A stretch of 64,000 bases of DNA. It comes from Myxococcota bacterium. Its GTDB lineage: Bacteria > Myxococcota_A > UBA9160 > UBA6930. The position numbers were made by a program, and so were the translations under genes. The stretch's first letter is position 1, and each line of letters begins with the position of its first letter. Of this stretch, positions 15,035-23,271 are shown piece after piece. The DNA lies in NCBI GenBank assembly GCA_965223415.1, contig OZ245002.1:4800001-4864000 (forward strand), written 5' to 3'. Under the pieces are notes generated by a model. The model had not been told where the DNA came from and made no database searches. It saw only the letters and a list, made by a program, of their open reading frames with translations.

Positions 15035-15111
15035 TGCGCAGGTTGTAGCGGGCCCGGGCCCCCTGTCGCGATCATCTCTACTACTGGTAGTGTCCTGCCC
15101 CGTGGGGGTAG

Positions 15112-15384
15112 TCATCTCGGGGCCATAATCGCCGCCCGGACGGCATCCTGGGCCGACTCGACCGGCGGCTCGTGCAGTACCGCCGTCACCTCCCCGTCCA
15201 CCTCCCAGGCGTAGCACCTGGGCGCCGTCGGGTGGCCCAGCAGCTCGAACACGAGCACCTCGCCCTCCCAGACGGTCTCGCCTTGGAAGGTCTCCACGAC
15301 GGGCTCCCGGCGCTCAAGGCGGCTCTTGGCGCCGTGGGTGGCCCGAATAGCCTGCTCGATCTGCGGGATCGGCAGCTCGTTCAT
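15112..15384 (-). CDS. Hypothetical passenger protein (90 aa)
   Basis: Globular ORF with E.FQGETVWEGEV..F..GHP...CYAW; stop lies just inside the left IR. Confidence 0.7.
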   Translation of the reverse strand: MNELPIPQIEQAIRATHGAKSRLERREPVVETFQGETVWEGEVLVFELLGHPTAPRCYAWEVDGEVTAVLHEPPVESAQDAVRAAIMAPR

Positions 15385-15386
15385 TC

Positions 15387-16193
15387 CTATTCGGGCCGGG
15401 GCGAGCGCTCTGCGATTGCAGCACGCACATCGATGCCGCCCTCGCCCTCGTACATGAGGTCGAAGATGTTGGCGGCCGTCTGGAGCCACTTGGCGCGTTC
15501 GGGAATCGGCCACTCGCTATCCGGCTCGGGCAGGGATCCGAGCAGACCCTGGATGAACGGATGCAAGCCGTCGGAACCATCGCCTCCGCCATGGTTCGGG
15601 TTCTCGTCAACCTCGTTCACCGGGGGATCATTCTGCGGGGTCGTCACTCCGGGGCGCACCAGCCGATTGCGTCCGTGCTCGAAGAACCCGGCCCGCTCCG
15701 CGGAGCGCTCCAGAACCTGGCGAGCCCGGCTCTTCTGCTTGTCCGCAACGCCCAGGCCTTGCATGTCGCGTTCGAGGGCAGCCGCCGGCGGAACGACGCC
15801 CCCGCTGTACTTGTCGTACACCTCGCGGTAGAGGGGCACCGAGAGGAACGCATCGACGAGCGCCGCTCGCGCCTGACTCGGGTCCATGGCTCGGCGCCCG
15901 AGGTCAGAGAGGCGGTGCATCCCGGACCCACTGCCACCCTCGATGAGGCGGAAGTGGCGCGCCGACGCGACCTGGGTGCGATACGCGCTGCTCTTCGGGC
16001 TCTGGTTCGTCCAGGGCGCGAGCTGGTCGTCGGAGCACTCTCCGCTCCCGACGTTCGAGTGGATCGCCTCGGCCATCTGAATCGCCGAGGCCAGATCGCT
16101 GTAGGGGAACGCGATCGTGGACCGCTGGCGCCCCCCGCCGTCTTCCTTCGCCGTCGCCGCATCCGCGACCGACGGGATCGAGTCTCCGCTCAT
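15387..16193 (-). CDS. Hypothetical passenger protein, probable winged-helix N-domain
   Basis: FPYSDL...SARHFRLIE...LSDLGR; C-terminal LHPFIQGLL.SLP...WLQTAANIFDLMY; RBS GGAGG. Confidence 0.7.
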   Translation of the reverse strand: MSGDSIPSVADAATAKEDGGGRQRSTIAFPYSDLASAIQMAEAIHSNVGSGECSDDQLAPWTNQSPKSSAYRTQVASARHFRLIEGGSGSGMHRLSDLGRRAMDPSQARAALVDAFLSVPLYREVYDKYSGGVVPPAAALERDMQGLGVADKQKSRARQVLERSAERAGFFEHGRNRLVRPGVTTPQNDPPVNEVDENPNHGGGDGSDGLHPFIQGLLGSLPEPDSEWPIPERAKWLQTAANIFDLMYEGEGGIDVRAAIAERSPRPE

Positions 16194-16480
16194 GCGAACC
16201 TCCCTTGCCGCAAGAGTGAATCGCGGCGTCCACGAATCTAGCAGACAAAGCGTGCTTGTCTCGCAGTCCGCAGTCGAAATGGTTGACAATCGCGGATTGC
16301 GACGCTCTACTTGTCTGACGCCCGTCCAGCATGCGGAGGAAAGCGGTGAGGAGGGTCTAGAGCGCCGGTGGCTGGAGTGGTCCACCCCGAACGGCGCGAA
16401 CACAAGTAACACCGCCCGGTATCCCGTCCTAGCTGGCCAGCCTTCGGGGATACCGGGCGGGAGGACCTGCCCGCCCCAGT

Positions 16481-16551
16481 GGGGCACGCAGGTTTGCCGG
16501 CAGAGGTCTTTACAGCCGTCTCCGTCGGGTTCGACTCCCGAGTGCTCCACC
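16481..16551 (+). ncRNA. tRNA-like structured RNA (Ala-type acceptor stem, no canonical anticodon arm)
   Basis: Acceptor GGGGCAC/GTGCTCC with G3:U70, discriminator A then CC; T-arm TCGGG-TTCGACT-CCCGA. Confidence 0.55.
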
Positions 16552-16568
16552 CGGGGCCTGGGCTCAGC

Positions 16569-16760
16569 TTAGCCAAGGTCCGCCCGTTCCAGCAGTACGG
16601 CCCTCGCCCAAGGTGAGAAGGCCATATCGGCCTTCTTGGCCGCCTTCTGGAGCTTCGCCCGGTCCGAAGCCCGCAGACGGATCGTGACTACTACGTCTTG
16701 GTCCTGCCCCTTCGGGAGCTTCGGTCTGCCCCTCGGGCGCTTCCTCGTTCTCGCCGCCAT
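16569..16760 (-). CDS. Small DNA-binding protein (AT-hook-like RPRGRPK plus ribbon-helix-helix-like region)
   Basis: VVTIRL...RAKLQKAA....FSPWARAVL; divergent from the transposase. Confidence 0.65.
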   Translation of the reverse strand: MAARTRKRPRGRPKLPKGQDQDVVVTIRLRASDRAKLQKAAKKADMAFSPWARAVLLERADLG

Positions 16761-16808
16761 GCGATTTCTTGTACCACATCAAATGAATATCTGCACTACG
16801 AAAAATCC

Positions 16809-16837
16809 TTGATTGCCCTTGATATTTGTAGTACATT
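16809..16837 (+). promoter_or_regulatory. Sigma-70-type promoter of the IS1-family transposase (probably leaderless)
   Basis: TTGATT-N17-TACATT, 6 nt before ATG 16844, in an AT-rich divergent spacer. Confidence 0.6.
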
Positions 16838-19168
16838 AAATCCATGGCGCGGCTCACCACGGACAAGAAGGCCACCATCCTCGGCGCCTTGGTCGAGGGC
16901 TCCTCGATCCGCTCGACCGAGCGCATGACCGGCGTCCACCGCGACACCATCTGCAAGCTCGTGGTGGAGACGGGCCGGAAGGCTGAACGGATCATGGCCG
17001 ACGAGATCCGCCACGTGCAGCCCCAGAGCCTCCAGCTGGACGAGATCTGGTGTTTCGTGGGGAAGAAGAAGGCCAACCTCAAGAAGACCGATGACCCGCG
17101 CACCACGGGCGACGCCTGGTGCTGGGTGGCCCTCGATCCCGATTCCAAGCTCGTCCCCCACCACCTGGTCGCGAAGCGCGAGGCTCGCGACGCCGTGCGG
17201 TTCACCCGCGAGCTGGCCCAGCGCGTCGAAGGCCGCATCCAGATCAACACTGACAAGCTCGGGGCCTACCGGCAGGCTGTCTTCGCGGCATGGGGCAGGG
17301 ACGTGGACTACGGCCGGATCGTAAAGCGGTTCTCAGGGGAGCCTCTGGACTCCGGTAGGTACTCGCCGCCGAAGGTGGTCGCGGTGGACCGGAGATCGTC
17401 TACGGAAACCCCGATCCAACCACGATCTGCACCTCCCATGTCGAGCGGAACAACCTCACGATGCGGATGGGGATGCGACGCTTTACGCGGCTGACCAACG
17501 GGTTTTCCAAGAAGGTCGAGAACCTCCGGGCCGCGGTGGCGCTTCACTTCTGCCACTACAACTTCATCCGCCGGCACGCCACCATCAAGACGACCCCGGC
17601 CCTGGCGGCAGGGGTCACGGACCACCGCTGGACCCTGGCCTCGGTGGACACCCAAAACCGGCCATAGAAGGACGTCTGAAAAGCGGCCATAGGGGCTGAC
17701 GCCCAGGACGTTGACGACGGCGAGGGACCTGCGATCCCCCGCCGCCATGGCGAACCTTCTGGGCAACGAGAAACGCGAGCAGATTCTGGCACTTGGCCGC
17801 CTCGGCTGGTCGCTTCGGCGGATCGAGGAGGCGACGGGCGTGCGCCGGGAGACGGCGAGCCGTTACCTCCGGGCCGCGGGGATCGCGGTGCGATCTCCTG
17901 GTCGCTGGGGGCACGGGGCCCCAAACCCGGCCATAGAGGCGTCCACCGACTCGAAGGCCCCGGCAAAAGCGGCCAAAGAGGCGTCCACCGATCCGGCCTG
18001 GCCGCCGATGCCGGGCCGGAGCCCCCAGGCCAGCGCCTGCGAGCCCTACCGCGAGTGGATCGAGGCGGGCGTGCGCCAGGGCCGGACGGCGATGGCGATC
18101 TGGCAGGACCTAGTCGATGACCACGGCTTCGCCTTCAGCTATGCGAGTGTGAAGCGCTTCGTGGCGAAGCAGCGAGCCGCGGCGCCGCGCGAGGCGCACC
18201 CGGTGATCGAGACGGCACCGGGAGAAGAGGGCCAGGTCGACTACGGCGACGGGCCGATGGTGCGGCATCCCGGGTCGGGGAAGTACCGGCGCACGAGGCT
18301 GTTCGTCTTCACCCTGGGCTACAGCCGCAAGTGCGTTCGGCTGCTCGTGTGGAAGTCGAGCAGCCAGGTCTGGTCGGAGCTGCACGAGAAGGCCTTCCGC
18401 CGGCTGGGCGGTGCACCGCGCACCGTCGTCCTCGACAACCTCAAGGAGGGCGTTCTCAAGCCCGACGTCTACGACCCCGCGCTCAACCCCCTCTACCGCG
18501 ATGTGCTCGCCCACTACGGCGTGACGGCGCTTCCGTGCCGGGTGCGCCACCCCGATCGCAAGGGGAAGGTCGAGTCCGGGGTGCGCCACGCGCAGCAGAA
18601 GGTCCGCGGGATGCGCTTCGAGTCGCTCGAGCAGGCCCAGGCCTACCTCGACCGCTGGGAGCGCCGATGGGCCGACACCCGCATCCACGGCACGACCAAG
18701 CGCCAGGTGGCGGCGATGTACGAAGAGGAGAAGCCGCACCTGCTCGGGCTTCCCATCGAGCCCTTCCGCTACTACCAGCACGGCGAGCGCACGGTGCACC
18801 TCGACGGGGCCATCGAGGTGGAGGGGGCCTACTACCACGCGCCGCCGGGCTGGCTGGGGCGGCGGGTGGCCGTCCAATGGGACGGGCTGCGGGTGCGGAT
18901 GCTCGATCTGCAGACGGGGGAGCTGCTGCGCGAGCACGTCCGCCAGAGGCGGGGGCGCCGCAGGATGCGGGAGGAGGACCGCCCGAAGCGGACGCCGGCC
19001 ACGACCCTCCAGCTGCTCGCGCGGGCCCGGCGCGCCGGCGTCCACGTGGGCGAGGTGTGTGAGGCGATCCATCGCCTGGACGGCGTGTCGCAGGACGTGA
19101 TATTCGAGGGCTAAGAGGACACGTAGATTTGCGCACCTCCTGTTGAGCCGCTGCGCGGCACGTTCCCC

Positions 19169-20455
19169 GTGAGGGAGGGGGGCGTGGGGCAGCGGCGACT
19201 GAGGCAGGAGGAAGTGATGACGATCGAAGTGCTGCACGAGCGGGGGTGCTCGAACCGGGAGATCGCCCGCCAGCTGGGGATCCGGGAGAGCGCGGTGCGC
19301 TACCGGCTGAAGCGGCTGGCGGAGGGGGCGCGAGACGGCCGGAGCGGGAAGCCCTTCCTGGCCGAGGCGGTCCACGAGGTGATCGCGGAGTGGCTGGAGG
19401 CGAGCTCGGGAGGCCGTGGCGTGAACCTGCAGGAGCTTCACGAGTTCCTGGTGGAGGAGCACGGGTACACGGGGAGCTCCAAGAGCGTGCAGCGGTACGT
19501 GCGGGCCCGGTTCCCGAGACCGAAGGTGCGGAGCCGGCGTCGGGTGGAGACACCGCCCGGGGCGCAGGGTCAGGTGGACTGGGGCGAGTTTCCGGGCGTG
19601 CGGATCGGGGGCCAGGAGGTGGACCTGCATGCCTTCCACCTGGTGCTCTCGCACTCGCGGCGAGAAGCGGTGGTGTGGTCGGAGCGGGCGGACACGCTGG
19701 CGTGGCTGGACGTGCACAACCGGGCCTTCGAGCGGCTGGGCGGGGTGCCGGCGGTGCTGCGGGTCGACAACGTGAAGACAGCGGTGGCGAAGGGGGCGGG
19801 GCCATGGGGGACGGTGAACCCGGCTTACGCGAGCTATGCCGGGGCCCTTCGCTTCCACGTGGACGCCACCCGTCCCCGCCAGCCGCAGGAGAAGGGGAAG
19901 GTGGAGCGTCGGATCCTGGGGCACCGGCGGGGCTTCGATCCGCGTCGGCGGGAGCACGAGAGCCTGGAGTCGCTGCAAGCGTGGACGGACGGCCAGGTGG
20001 CGCGCTCGAGCCACCGGCGGCAGTGCCCGGCGACGGGCACGACGGTCTTCCAGGCGTGGGAGGCGGAGAAGCCCCATCTCGGGGCCCTGCCCGAGCGGCT
20101 TCCCGAGCCCTTCGACCTGGCCGTGATGCGACGTGTCGGGCGCGACGCCACGGTGCGCTTCGAGGGGCGTACCTACAGCGTCCCCTTCCGCTTCGTCGAG
20201 CAGAGCGTCGAGGTGCGCGGCTGCGCCCGGCAGGTGCAGGTCTGGGCCGAGGGCTCGGTGGTGGCCGCGCACCCGCGCCACACGCGAAGCCGCCTGCTGC
20301 TGGACCCGAGCCACTACGAGGGGCCGAGCACGGAGGGGGTGGAGGCGCCCGTACCGCTCGGGCGCATGGGTCGACGCCTCCAGGAGCTGTGGGCGATGGA
20401 GCCGGAGCAGCGGCCGATCGACCTCTATGCCGATCTGGCGGAGGTGGCGCGATGA
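19169..20455 (+). CDS. istA: IS21 transposase IstA
   Basis: HTH, ETPPGAQGQVDWG, VDNVK, KGKVER; start could be slightly downstream. Confidence 0.9.
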   Translation: MREGGVGQRRLRQEEVMTIEVLHERGCSNREIARQLGIRESAVRYRLKRLAEGARDGRSGKPFLAEAVHEVIAEWLEASSGGRGVNLQELHEFLVEEHGYTGSSKSVQRYVRARFPRPKVRSRRRVETPPGAQGQVDWGEFPGVRIGGQEVDLHAFHLVLSHSRREAVVWSERADTLAWLDVHNRAFERLGGVPAVLRVDNVKTAVAKGAGPWGTVNPAYASYAGALRFHVDATRPRQPQEKGKVERRILGHRRGFDPRRREHESLESLQAWTDGQVARSSHRRQCPATGTTVFQAWEAEKPHLGALPERLPEPFDLAVMRRVGRDATVRFEGRTYSVPFRFVEQSVEVRGCARQVQVWAEGSVVAAHPRHTRSRLLLDPSHYEGPSTEGVEAPVPLGRMGRRLQELWAMEPEQRPIDLYADLAEVAR

Positions 20456-21252
20456 CGGCGGGAAACCCGGTGCCCAAGAAGGGCGGCAAGGTGGATCTCG
20501 ACCCGACCCGCGAGCGGCTCGTGCGCCTCGGCCTCCATCACGCGGCCGAGCACATCGGCGAGGAGCTGGCCCGAGCGACCAAGGACGACCTCGTGCCCCA
20601 CCGCTTCCTCGACCTGCTGCTCGAGGCCGAGCTGCAGCACCGCGAGGAGCGGAGGATGAAGACCTCGCTCCGTCTCTCGGGCCTTCCCACGGGGCAGACC
20701 CTCGGCAACTTCGACTTCGCCTTCCAGCCGAGTGTGGAGCGGAGCCGGATCGAGACGCTGGGCACCTGCGCGTGGATCCGGGCCAAGGAGAGTCTGCTGA
20801 TCCAGGGTCCGCCGGGAGTGGGCAAGACCCACCTGGCGGTGGCCCTGGGGGTGCGGGCCGTGGAGAACGGCTTCTCCGTGGCCTTCCATCGCCTCGAGGA
20901 CCTGCTGGCGGCCCTCAAGCGCGACGCCGAGATCAGCCCGCAACGGCTGCGGCGGCGCAAGCACATGAACGTGGCGCTCCTCGTCATCGACGAGGTCGGC
21001 TTCGAGCCCATGACGCGCCAGGAGGCGAGCCTCTTCTTCCGGCTCGTCTCCTACCGCTATGGGAGGGGCTCGATCCTGATCACCACGAACAAGGGCATCG
21101 CCGACTGGCCCGAGGTGCTGGCGGGCGACGAGGTGCTGGCCACCGCCATCCTCGATCGCCTCCTCCACCACAGCCAGGTGCTCAACATCTCGGGGCGGAG
21201 CTACCGGCTCCGCGAGCTCGAGCAGGCCGCGGGGCAAAGCGCCCAGCGTTGA
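20452..21252 (+). CDS. istB: IS21 helper AAA+ ATPase IstB
   Basis: FDFAFQP, GPPGVGKTHLA, LVIDEVG, AILDRLLHH, GRSYR; ATGA overlap with istA. Confidence 0.92.
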   Translation: MTAGNPVPKKGGKVDLDPTRERLVRLGLHHAAEHIGEELARATKDDLVPHRFLDLLLEAELQHREERRMKTSLRLSGLPTGQTLGNFDFAFQPSVERSRIETLGTCAWIRAKESLLIQGPPGVGKTHLAVALGVRAVENGFSVAFHRLEDLLAALKRDAEISPQRLRRRKHMNVALLVIDEVGFEPMTRQEASLFFRLVSYRYGRGSILITTNKGIADWPEVLAGDEVLATAILDRLLHHSQVLNISGRSYRLRELEQAAGQSAQR

Positions 21253-21629
21253 GGCCCCAGAGGGCGGCCTGACGGCCGTGCTCTCCTTCGGAGAGCGGAA
21301 GAGAAGAAGGAAGAACCGAACATCAACCCAGGGGGGTGCGCAAAACTAGCCGTCCTCTTAGCGCGCAAGAGATGACGTCCCTCGACACGGCGAGCCCGGG
21401 GTGCGTCGCATCCTGGGCGTGCTCTCCCTGTGCAAGCGCCACGGCATCCCTCGCGTCGACGATGCCTGCGCCACCGCCCTGGCCCTCGAGCTGCCCACCT
21501 ACGCGTTCGTCAAGCGCTACCTGGAGCGTCAGCCCGAGCTGCCGCTCTCGCTCAAGCAGGTGGACCCGCTCATCCGCCAGCTCACCCACTACCGCGATCT
21601 CATCGATCGCCGCACCGAGGAGACCTCTC

Positions 21630-22391
21630 GTGAATCTGACTGAACTCGATCCCGCACTGCGCAAGCTCCGGCTCTCGGGCATGGCCGAGCATCTGGAGAT
21701 GCGGCTCCTCGAAGCCCAGAAGGGCGAGTGGGCGGCCATCGACCTGCTCTCGGCGCTCGTCCAGGACGAGCTCGAGCGCCGGCAGGACCGACTGCTGGCC
21801 CGGCGCATCAAGCAGGCCCGCTTCCGCGACGCCAACCGGACCCTCAACGGCTTCGACTTCCGCTTCAATACGAAGATCGATCGCGCCCTGGTCTTCGAGC
21901 TCGCCACGGGCCGCTTCCTCGAGCAAGCCGAGGACGCTGTCTTCCTCGGCCCGCCGGGCACGGGCAAGAGCCATCTCGCCCAGGCGATCGGCCTCGCCGT
22001 CATCCACCAGGGCCATCGCGTCGCCTACCGCGAGGTCCACGTCCTCCTCGAGGAACTCGCTGATGCGACCCTCGACGGCACCCGCAAGGAGTACCTGGCC
22101 GAGATGGCGAGCGTGCCGCTGCTCATCCTTGACGACCTCGGCATGCGCAAGCTCCCCACCACGGCCGCCGAGGACCTGCTCGAGCTCATCATGCGCCGCT
22201 ACGAGCGCACCAGCACCCTCGTCACCTCGAACCGACCCGTCGACGACTGGGGCCGGCTCCTCGGCGACACGGCAGCCGTCACCGCCATGCTCGACCGCCT
22301 CCTCCACCACGGCCACCTGCTCAAGTGCGGACCCCGCAGCTGGCGCACCAAGAAGACCACGGCCTTGCCGAAGGAGGCTCCGGCGCGGTAG
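21630..22391 (+). CDS. istB: IS21 helper AAA+ ATPase IstB (outer element)
   Basis: LRLSGM, FDFRFN, GPPGTGKSHLA, LILDDLG, AMLDRLLHH. Confidence 0.9.
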   Translation: MNLTELDPALRKLRLSGMAEHLEMRLLEAQKGEWAAIDLLSALVQDELERRQDRLLARRIKQARFRDANRTLNGFDFRFNTKIDRALVFELATGRFLEQAEDAVFLGPPGTGKSHLAQAIGLAVIHQGHRVAYREVHVLLEELADATLDGTRKEYLAEMASVPLLILDDLGMRKLPTTAAEDLLELIMRRYERTSTLVTSNRPVDDWGRLLGDTAAVTAMLDRLLHHGHLLKCGPRSWRTKKTTALPKEAPAR

Positions 22392-22498
22392 AACCCCTCT
22401 GTCCTGGGCGCGGCCCTTTGGCCGCCTTTGAGACGTCCACCTTTGGCCGGTTTTCAGACGTCCACCGAGGCCCTGGAGGAGCTGGTAGAGGCGCCGTA

Positions 22499-22846
22499 CT
22501 AGCTCGCGAGCTGGCGGACTGATTCGTCCCAAGCACGCACCTTCTCCTTGGCGATCGGGCCGAGGTTCCGCGCGAGCATCGACATGATGGCGCTTAGGTG
22601 GGGCTTGGCGGCTTCGAAGAGCTCTTCTCCCGTGATTCCCCCCGGAATCAGGGCATCAGATACGGCCTGCTGGACGAACGACGGCATGTCGAGAATGTCG
22701 ATGCCAACGATGCGATCTAGGTCCTCAGAGACCAAGATTGTCATGTCCTCCAGCGGTACCGCTACCGTCTGGCCGCGCAGGTACTCTGAGATGGATACCT
22801 GGACCACGTCCGTATCAGGGCAGTAGATCAGCCTGATTTCGTCCAT
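22499..22846 (-). CDS. Putative antitoxin, DUF2283-like
   Basis: Acidic protein; Y.PDTDVV...IVGIDILD pattern; overlaps the end of the upstream gene. Confidence 0.5.
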   Translation of the reverse strand: MDEIRLIYCPDTDVVQVSISEYLRGQTVAVPLEDMTILVSEDLDRIVGIDILDMPSFVQQAVSDALIPGGITGEELFEAAKPHLSAIMSMLARNLGPIAKEKVRAWDESVRQLAS

Positions 22847-23172
22847 ACGACGTTCATCCTTCCTGCGGGGGGAATGGCCTTGTCGTAGGCGGTGACCAGC
22901 TCCCACCAGCGGGGCGGGTCGGCGTTCTTGGGACGCGGTTTTGCCGACACCATATGGGCGCGGTCCTCAGAGAATACCTTGTAGTAGTTCAAAGAGCCGT
23001 GGGCCACGTTCTCGCAGATGAAGCTGGGATCCTCGATGGTCTCCCGCATCCAAGACTGATCGGCCTCCTCATGCCTCTCCTTGATGTGGATATCCCACGT
23101 CCTCTGCCTGAATTTGACGGTGCGTCCCTGGGGATCGTTCACCTCGAAGATGAGAGGGTTTCTGACGGCCAT
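22828..23172 (-). CDS. Putative BECR-fold RNase toxin (PBECR2/DUF4258-like)
   Basis: DPQGRTV...W..HI.ERH...ETIEDP..I...YY...LVTAY pattern. Confidence 0.5.
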   Translation of the reverse strand: MAVRNPLIFEVNDPQGRTVKFRQRTWDIHIKERHEEADQSWMRETIEDPSFICENVAHGSLNYYKVFSEDRAHMVSAKPRPKNADPPRWWELVTAYDKAIPPAGRMNVVWTKSG

Positions 23173-23243
23173 CCCCGGGGGATATCAGCACCGGCGGACC
23201 AGCCAGTCAAGTCATTCCCTCCGGGGTAGGACACCACCCTACT

Positions 23244-23271
23244 ACTTTACATAATCTATCTTATCGGACAT
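23244..23271 (-). other. dif-like XerCD recombination site
   Basis: Minus strand ATGTCCGATAA-GATAGA-TTATGTAAAGT: 11-6-11 layout with the conserved TTATGT(A/T)AA XerD arm; KOPS polarity flips here. Confidence 0.85.

Follow-up and report, generated by a model that had tools for sequence, protein, structure and literature searches.

We analysed a 64,000-nt stretch of a Myxococcota bacterium genome (assembly GCA_965223415.1, contig OZ245002.1, positions 4,800,001 to 4,864,000 of the forward strand; hereafter the window), in which a transposon that appears to be distantly related to the insertion sequence (IS) family IS1 carries a gene for a small transfer RNA (tRNA)-like RNA. From left to right, the transposon holds ORFx, a gene that we call c0, the RNA gene, a gene for a ribbon-helix-helix (RHH) protein, the transposase gene c1, a nested IS21-family element and two cargo open reading frames (ORFs), and the coordinates of these features are collected in Table 1. 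Since the whole is bounded by 17-nt inverted repeats and a perfect 8-bp target duplication, the RNA is transposon-borne, as a preliminary description of the window had held. The gap in which the RNA lies measures 375 bp (16194-16568), and we found no conserved gene in it; the description had put it at about 370 bp without a convincing gene. Loci (L) and genomes (G) are cited by number where they have to be told apart.

Table 1. Features of the transposon and of its tRNA-like RNA (positions are those of the window)
Feature	Position	Strand	Remarks
Left copy of 8-bp target-site duplication CTACTACT	15078..15085	.	Identical to 23239-23246
Left terminal inverted repeat GGTAGTGTCCTGCCCCG, 17 nt	15086..15102	+	15/17 bases complementary to 23222-23238
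ORFx, 90 aa, downstream of c0	15112..15384	-	No Pfam match
c0, 268 aa, predicted tandem winged-helix fold	15387..16193	-	693 homologues
TTGACA, -35-like box of the RNA leader	16283..16288	+	GGTTGACAA common to window and L033
Leader hairpin 1 (GCGCCG ... CGGCGC)	16362..16397	+	Highly conserved relative to L210; equivalents GCCCCGG...CCGGGGC in subtype-a loci
Leader hairpin 2, perfect 14-bp stem	16412..16460	+	16412-16425 (CCGCCCGGTATCCC) with 16447-16460 (GGGATACCGGGCGG)
Possible competing 7-bp stem	16455-16461 (GGGCGGG) with 16470-16476 (CCCGCCC)		Only partly kept in L210
tRNA-like RNA, subtype b, 72 nt	16481..16552	+	Base-by-base reading, minimum-free-energy (MFE) fold, alignment, score with model R2
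Acceptor stem of the tRNA-like RNA	16481-16487 (GGGGCAC) with 16542-16548 (GTGCTCC)		7 bp, including G3.U70
Mini D hairpin GCA-GGUU-UGC	16488-16497		3-bp stem, 4-nt loop, conserved
Anticodon-type arm	16498-16524		Loop CUUUACA 16508-16514, UAC at 16511-16513
T arm TCGGG-TTCGACT-CCCGA	16525-16541		Canonical
A73	16549		Followed by CCC at 16550-16552
RHH gene, 63 aa	16569..16760	-	Convergent with the RNA; weak NikA-like/DUF6290 matches
c1, probable distant IS1-family DDE transposase, pseudogene here	16844..17646	+	Single GTA codon at 17321-17323
Nested IS21-family element, 4.8 kb	17654..22454	+	41-nt inverted repeats 17654-17694 / 22414-22454, 85% complementary; IstA-like genes 17711-19114 and 19169-20455, IstB 21336-22391
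Two overlapping cargo ORFs, 135 and 114 aa	22499..23172	-
Right terminal inverted repeat (reverse complement GGTGGTGTCCTACCCCG)	23222..23238	-
Right copy of 8-bp target-site duplication CTACTACT	23239..23246	.

The RNA is compact: its mini D hairpin abuts the acceptor stem without linker bases, and only 35 nt lie between the acceptor 5' strand and the T arm. The anticodon-type arm is long and irregular, with a 7-nt loop in the MFE fold of the window copy (CUUUACA, with U33). Base by base, we confirmed the TTGACA box, the 14-bp stem, the competing 7-bp stem, the acceptor stem with G3:U70, A73 and the T arm, all of which had been noted in the preliminary description. Its remark that the RNA has no proper D stem or anticodon loop has to be corrected: both a conserved 3-bp D hairpin and an anticodon-type arm with a 7-nt loop are present.

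Standard tools returned little at this site. ARAGORN found no tRNA gene and no transfer-messenger RNA (tmRNA) gene in the window, Rfam gave no match there at its gathering score, and the best hit of a relaxed Rfam search of the window was tRNA-Sec at 19.7 bits (E = 0.25; the Rfam tRNA cut-off is 29 bits). The folding energy did not differ significantly from that of shuffled sequences (z = -0.53 and z = -1.06). Hence, on the detector and energy results alone, a chance resemblance or a decayed tRNA would have been possible.

We found that the RNA belongs to a conserved family, using an alignment of 16 subtype-b sequences (A5) and a covariance model of 16 relatives (R2). In A5, 99.0% of the helix cells are paired, compared with 81.9% in shuffles, and pairing falls to 29-55% once the 3' partners are slid. 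The covariation score is 0.434 vs 0.115 in shuffles, and none of 500 shuffles reaches 0.434, so the check for covariation across homologous elements that the preliminary description had proposed came out in favour of its structured, tRNA-like RNA gene. The acceptor stem, mini D hairpin, outer anticodon stem and T stem are all supported, with double changes at 7 pairs. The shared plan of subtype b is a 7-bp acceptor stem, the mini D hairpin, a long anticodon-type arm starting with CGG or CCG, and a 5-bp T stem with a UUCGANU loop.

The acceptor end carries the identity set for alanyl-tRNA synthetase (AlaRS), as had been surmised. G3.U70 is kept in 15/16 A5 sequences and in 6 more members outside the model, A73 is present in 15/16, and G1-C72, G2-C71 and G4-C69 are invariant or nearly so. 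This set is conserved across the relatives while the neighbouring acceptor pairs 5-7 and the T stem covary.

The R2 model separates the family clearly from other RNAs. In the 5.8-Mb host genome, the window copy scores 85 bits and is the single copy, the next hits being the host tRNA-Ala genes at 30-33 bits. When metagenome contigs were scanned for the pattern, 118 stretches came out, mostly chance matches; with R2, 19 of the first 100 of these scored at least 63 bits, and the next best scored at most 30 bits. A copy is present in 4 of the 151 genomes sampled from the host phylum. The RNA pattern had 0 matches in 2.9 million viral contigs, and a search for DNA-level relatives among 61 genomes gave matches in only 3 other genomes, all of them chance matches in coding DNA. 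Hence, as a member of a conserved, covarying family with a clear R2 separation, the RNA is intact and under selection rather than a decayed tRNA. Judged by its sequence and that of its relatives, the window RNA is a real, structured tRNA-like gene, and the family to which it belongs is previously undescribed, unannotated and widespread, consisting of miniaturised tRNAs with the alanine identity set and non-alanine loops.

These results bear on the idea that the RNA is what remains of a decayed tRNA-Ala gene or of the attachment site of an integrated island. The 3' ends of tRNA and tmRNA genes are common attachment sites, two tmRNA 3' remnants are present elsewhere in the host genome, and standard tRNA finders miss the window copy. 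Yet the two strands of the acceptor stem and all helices are intact, with covariation across phyla, and the closest relatives lie in other organisms, at the same position of the same kind of element. We disfavour this origin and give it next to no weight. As an attachment-site remnant of the host tmRNA in particular, the RNA was rejected since the sequences differ; its sequence is also unlike that of the host tRNA-Ala genes. The two tmRNA remnants (G000:C1:4185957-4186023 and 4191579-4191646; L007:1520-1570) are partial tmRNA 3' ends that follow the genuine ssrA downstream, at distances of 7 and 12.5 kb, and they resemble attachment-site remnants of islands at ssrA.

The preliminary description had inferred a mini tmRNA/tRNA mimic without an mRNA domain. 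As a miniature tmRNA, the RNA would be an alanylated molecule working with SmpB in ribosome rescue. The alanine identity set and the reduced D region are indeed common to the RNA and the tRNA-like domain of tmRNA, and one subtype-b relative (L135) matches the Rfam tmRNA model from end to end at 29.1 bits, although this is below the cut-off of 47 bits. The mini tmRNA reading is not supported for the window RNA, which has no tag frame, pseudoknots, H2 helix or mRNA-like domain; besides the negative ARAGORN result, no match to the Rfam tmRNA model (RF00023) was found in the window at E ≤ 10. In addition, the anticodon-type arm sits where SmpB would, and an ordinary tmRNA is encoded elsewhere in the host genome. 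We consider a tmRNA-like role extremely unlikely.

Members of subtype b are found upstream of c1 in L182, L196, L210 and G004, upstream of IS1595-type transposases in L138 and L164, and elsewhere beside unrelated genes. The loops of further members (L112, L211, L218, L224, L227, L232) hold different triplets, among them UGG, UCC and the true alanine anticodon, UGC. Hence, the family spans several 'anticodons' on one alanine-type acceptor stem. In L036 (2923-2995), a tRNA-like RNA with an Ala-type acceptor stem (R2, 48.6 bits) lies downstream rather than upstream of c0 and is preceded by a terminator-like hairpin. Tandem tRNA-like RNAs occur in L104 (1186-1335) and L165 (24-164), where a cloverleaf RNA comes directly after a subtype-b-like one; the loop of the second RNA of L165, UUUGUAA, includes the reverse complement of UUACAA, the typical loop of subtype a.

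Subtype a is a sister family with a fuller cloverleaf. We fetched 75 loci around c0 homologues, searched them with ARAGORN and a covariance model (R1), and found subtype a in 23 of them, always about 300 nt upstream of c0 and divergent from it, in the layout of the window, with its place upstream of c1. In this subtype, 89% of the cells are paired (70% in shuffles), 16 pairs show double changes, and the Rfam tRNA model scores 34-48 bits, which is above its cut-off. The anticodon loop contains UAC in 26/26 sequences, with U33 in 20/26 and a purine at position 37 in 22/26. The window copy and that of L033 are set apart from subtype a, and these two copies have GGGG.. / ..CUCC-A and GCAGGUUUGCCGG in common. 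Among 30 loci fetched with c1 as the seed, subtype a lies upstream of c1 in L101, L104, L112 and L124, 3 of which have no c0. Hence, the RNA goes with the transposase, which it adjoins even where c0 is absent.

The UAC triplet matches GTA, a valine codon that makes up 1.9% of the Val codons in 935 long ORFs of the host. We compared 20 c1 genes that have a UAC tRNA-like RNA upstream with 25 c1 genes that do not have the RNA. In the RNA-bearing genes, GTA is fixed or nearly so at five columns of the c1 alignment, with 12/14 Val codons at column 167, 19/20 at column 184, 19/19 at column 185, 19/19 at column 187 and 15/16 at column 192; the motif at this cluster is RYSPxx-GTA-GTA-gcN-GTA. At the 13 other conserved Val columns of these 20 genes, there is no GTA in 200 Val codons. 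The 25 genes without the RNA have GTA in only 14/188 Val codons at conserved columns and do not show the cluster. Over whole c1 genes, GTA amounts to about 124/500 Val codons with the RNA and about 50/573 without it, at similar GC content of third codon positions (GC3); these ratios were 124/488 and 56/602 before L072 was moved to the RNA group and the duplicate L018 was dropped. The column counts leave out L018 (a duplicate of L017), L116, L117 and L123 (GC3 0.28-0.40), L196 and L210 (subtype b), as well as those c1 copies for which no one alignment reached 240 aa (L021, L025, L056, L112, L124 and fragments). The RNA-less rows include L118, from the unpublished genome G305, and no claim depends on it.

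Further comparisons bear on codon choice. L102 and L103, which are nested in the RNA-bearing clade in a quick tree, have neither the RNA nor the GTA cluster and use gtc or gtg at those sites. In L196, where the RNA is of subtype b with the loop GUUACAG, the GTA cluster is present in c1. As an internal control, c0 has no fixed GTA column, and its share of GTA is the same with and without the RNA. In the clade of the window, the cluster of c1 is gone, and the sole GTA is kept at the same Ile-Val-Lys site in 5/5 sequences while the neighbouring Ile codon varies. The RHH gene has GTA at 7/14 Val codons over four sequences and at 3/4 in the window. An overlapping antisense gene or a simple lack of divergence as the source of the fixed GTA codons was rejected since neighbouring synonymous sites vary freely.

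Only on the ribosome would a match of three bases matter, so that in the simplest interpretation the RNA serves as a tRNA for the GUA codons retained in the element's own genes. We propose, at about even confidence, that the feature is the gene for an element-encoded, non-canonical tRNA, probably alanine-accepting, that reads the rare GUA codons of the element itself. The RNA would be transcribed with a structured leader of about 190 nt (-35 box, two hairpins, then the tRNA-like part), cut out by tRNA-processing enzymes and provided with CCA. Charging would be by AlaRS, as the complete alanine identity set (G1-C72, G2-C71, G3.U70, G4-C69, A73) suggests. The UAC of the anticodon-type loop would then pair with GUA, which is very rare in the GC-rich host, so that a reader of its own would tie the synthesis of the transposition proteins to the level or the charging of the RNA. 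Charging with alanine may also change the residue that is inserted at GUA codons. A role in trans fits the layout, in which the RNA and the RHH gene converge and the c1 promoter is separate from the RNA.

Several observations weigh against decoding by the RNA. In the window loop, UAC lies one base 3' of the canonical register, in which the anticodon would be UUA, followed by C37; across subtype b, the loop ranges from 6 to 9 nt; a complete canonical 5-bp anticodon stem is present in 1/26 subtype-a sequences only; and neither ARAGORN nor Rfam calls the window copy. The host already encodes a tRNA-Val(UAC), so dependence on the RNA would not be absolute and at most quantitative. With alanine charging, Ala would be placed where Val is conserved, and this is a tension. 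The c1 gene of the window is broken by a 1-nt frameshift near 17417, and its 3' end is cut by the IS21 element at 17654. On the side of the codons, the RHH gene of L210 has no GTA, independent evolutionary events are scarce (just 3 changes of the RNA label suffice for the quick tree), and the agreement of UAG, UAU and UAA loop triplets with codons of neighbouring ORFs is anecdotal, with counts too small to use.

A variant of this proposal, which we regard as rather doubtful, goes further. A private alanine-charged tRNA with a UAC loop, together with GUA codons purposely kept in the transposase and the regulator, would give the element a small departure from the genetic code at those codons, with Val recoded to Ala, or a frameshift or stall due to the shifted or expanded loop. 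The departure would serve as a switch between active and inactive transposase.

The RNA is preceded by a conserved leader. Between the window and L210, the region from the -35 box to the tRNA-like RNA is far more alike than the flanking intergenic DNA, and the RNA is about 90% conserved. In L210, a U-A pair of hairpin 2 is replaced by C-G, which is a compensatory change, and a GC-rich hairpin precedes the tRNA-like RNA in nearly all relatives. Hence, hairpin 2 is part of the RNA unit. A scan of positions 16100-16950 with the sigma-70 consensus gave no promoter. In subtype a, the leader is laid out as in the window, in the order promoter-like TTGAC box, short AGGAG stretch, hairpin 1, purine-rich linker, hairpin 2 and tRNA-like RNA, and more conserved hairpins lie between the tRNA-like RNA and the start codon of c1. 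The conserved stretch containing AGGAG before hairpin 1 is found at 16345-16360 in the window and in the leaders of L022, L026 and L039. Some loci have it as a mini-ORF of 4-5 codons (M-T-T-V-stop, V-R-R-V-stop), others as a longer ORF, and it may encode a leader peptide or act as a decoy for ribosome binding.

The conservation of leader and tRNA-like RNA beyond that of the intergenic DNA would suit a riboregulator or protein cofactor that does no decoding, acting in trans or in cis. Such an RNA would bind the transposase, c0 or the RHH protein, or act antisense to the 3' end of the RHH gene, and would have its tRNA shape for stability or processing. Irregular anticodon stems and variable loops suit a ribosomal decoder poorly, and the placement of subtype b beside IS1595 transposases and unrelated genes also favours a role of this kind. 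The RHH stop codon is only 17 nt from the 3' end of the RNA, on the opposite strand, and hairpin 2 with the T-rich run behind it could terminate the RHH transcript, whose 3' untranslated region would then be antisense to the RNA. What this account leaves unexplained is the fixation of GTA at specific columns, for Val only and only where a UAC loop is encoded, along with the invariant G3.U70; a 3-nt match is meaningful on the ribosome only. We consider a riboregulator unlikely.

The layout of some relatives recalls a 'punctuation' signal, in which RNase P and RNase Z would cut a leader or upstream cistron from the transposase mRNA and release an RNA without function. In the subtype-a loci and in L182, L196 and L104, the RNA is co-oriented between an upstream gene or leader and c1, with conserved hairpins on both sides, and the minihelix of acceptor stem and T arm is intact in all members. 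RNase P needs neither G3.U70, a fixed UAC nor a D hairpin. All three are conserved, and the GTA cluster is left unexplained. In the clade of the window (window, L210, L260, L261), the RHH gene on the opposite strand separates the RNA from c1 and places it outside the c1 mRNA, and the RNA is conserved anyway. Hence, a pure processing signal, one of the roles first suggested for the RNA, fits the window poorly, and we judge it quite unlikely overall. A tRNA that decodes the element's GUA codons is the reading that we prefer.

In G004, which is of the same genus (L250:463-1470), a gene with a P63C domain stands in place of c0, and ORFx, the tRNA-like RNA and c1 are kept. The inverted-repeat motif of the left end also flanks ORFx in G004, and a similar repeat (GGTGCTGTCC) bounds the unit in L035. 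The ORFx-side end in G004 adjoins host DNA that is homologous to the c1-side flank of the window. Hence, the same site was apparently used in the opposite orientation. The order RNA-RHH-c1 also occurs in L210, G455 (L260) and G497 (L261), with RHH homologues in the same position in all three, and ORFx homologues of 62-84% identity are encoded in L250/L259, L210, L261 and L069.

The c0 protein had no match in Pfam, NCBIfam, PHROGs or PADLOC. A 387-aa minus-strand ORF across the gap is an upstream extension of c0, and all 22 aligned homologues start at the Met at position 16193. In the AlphaFold2 model (mean predicted local distance difference test score 79), the nearest folds were winged-helix domains with weak E-values, and Foldseek gave no match in the PDB at E ≤ 0.001. 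Short repeated motifs lie in the divergent promoter region. Hence, with the winged-helix model and these motifs, c0 is a probable regulator of the divergent promoter region. In 9 loci (L022, L025, L028, L031, L034, L037, L052, L056 and L061), one of them from Acidobacteriaceae, recA is located about 500-1500 nt downstream of c0, which suggests that insertion near recA is preferred or that the genes are functionally linked. In L047 (3352-3405), a DUF3800-VI RNA motif (Rfam RF02915; 51.4 bits, cut-off 35) lies just downstream of the c0 homologue.

The transposase c1 is probably a distant member of the IS1 family, at 54-59 bits with NCBIfam transpos_IS1, below the cut-off of 100. Pfam DDE_Tnp_IS1 scores 25-43 bits in c1 relatives (cut-off 24.1), and the c1 of the window matches DDE_Tnp_IS240 only, at 23.3 bits, below cut-off. 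The gene was present in 27/50 clustered loci and, in a c1-seeded search, in 44 of 301 genomes; the plasmid collection contained transposase fragments only, which are annotated as IS1 family transposase. Intact relatives encode the transposase in a single ORF. For this reason, and in the absence of a slippery site, a programmed frameshift in the window c1 was rejected in favour of a 1-nt indel. With its frameshift and the IS21 insertion in the 3' end of c1, the window copy of the transposon is immobile; the RNA, RHH, c0 and ORFx are intact although c1 is broken.

Of the two cargo ORFs, which may form a toxin-immunity pair, the 114-aa one (22828-23172, minus strand) gave a PBECR2 nuclease-like match (Barnase/EndoU/colicin E5-D/RelE-like) at 15.9 bits (E = 0.016), below the cut-off of 27.1. 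Such a protein raises the question of whether the RNA serves as a decoy, antidote or substitute for a tRNA-targeting nuclease, either borne by the element, as the preliminary description had put it, or from a host defence. Subtype-b loci also lie beside genes for a NYN-domain protein (L193) and a Gp49/HigB-like protein (L135). We found no support for a decoy of the element's own toxin: the PBECR2 match is the only one and is below the Pfam cut-off, and searches of the other loci recovered ORFx and RHH but not this ORF. The RNA is not consistently accompanied by any nuclease gene, and we consider a role of this type very unlikely.

We searched the literature for tRNA-like RNAs in IS elements and for codon-gated transposases and found no description of either. 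What normally limits the output of a transposase is a weak promoter, an antisense RNA, frameshifting or methylation. If the preferred reading is true, a self-encoded tRNA matched to codons of the transposase would be a new kind of transposase control, and a natural case of a mobile element that brings along some of the translation machinery for the few genes it carries. The family is also relevant to natural mistranslation, to tRNA annotation (the window copy escapes standard tools) and to minimal tRNA architecture.

The window RNA is neither a canonical tRNA nor a tmRNA. With tRNA-Ala it shares the first four acceptor pairs and the discriminator base, which are conserved in the family; it differs in its reduced D arm, its long irregular anticodon stem, its UAC (other non-alanine triplets in relatives) and its score below every tRNA threshold. 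With the tRNA-like domain of tmRNA (RF00023) it has in common the alanine-type acceptor, the canonical T arm and the reduced D region, whereas it is without the mRNA-like domain, has an anticodon-type arm and sits on a transposon rather than at an ssrA locus.

A mismatch between acceptor identity and anticodon is known from tRNA-ProX of Streptomycetaceae, a natural dual-identity 'mistranslating' tRNA in which the two are reported to specify different amino acids, with proline identity and a dedicated chromosomal ProRSx (PMC10404621). By comparison, the family of the window RNA has alanine identity, no dedicated synthetase nearby and a location on IS-like elements, and the likeness applies to the window RNA if it is alanylated.

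For dependence on a rare codon, the closest parallel is the bldA tRNA-Leu(UAA) of Streptomyces: the rare A-ending TTA codon is kept in particular genes of a GC-rich genome, and their translation depends on one dedicated tRNA. In the transposon, by contrast, the tRNA and its targets would travel together, and the tRNA would be non-canonical, with alanine identity and the codon GUA. In the IS1 family, the transposase is controlled by translation through the programmed frameshift InsAB'; control of an IS1-related DDE transposase that is apparently set at translation is shared here, but with a self-encoded tRNA and rare codons in place of a slippery site. Phages and other mobile elements carry tRNA genes for codon-usage compensation, and a mobile-element tRNA that matches the element's own codons is common to both; what sets the present case apart is a single non-canonical tRNA, a 3.4-kb IS-like transposon and site-specific codon retention.

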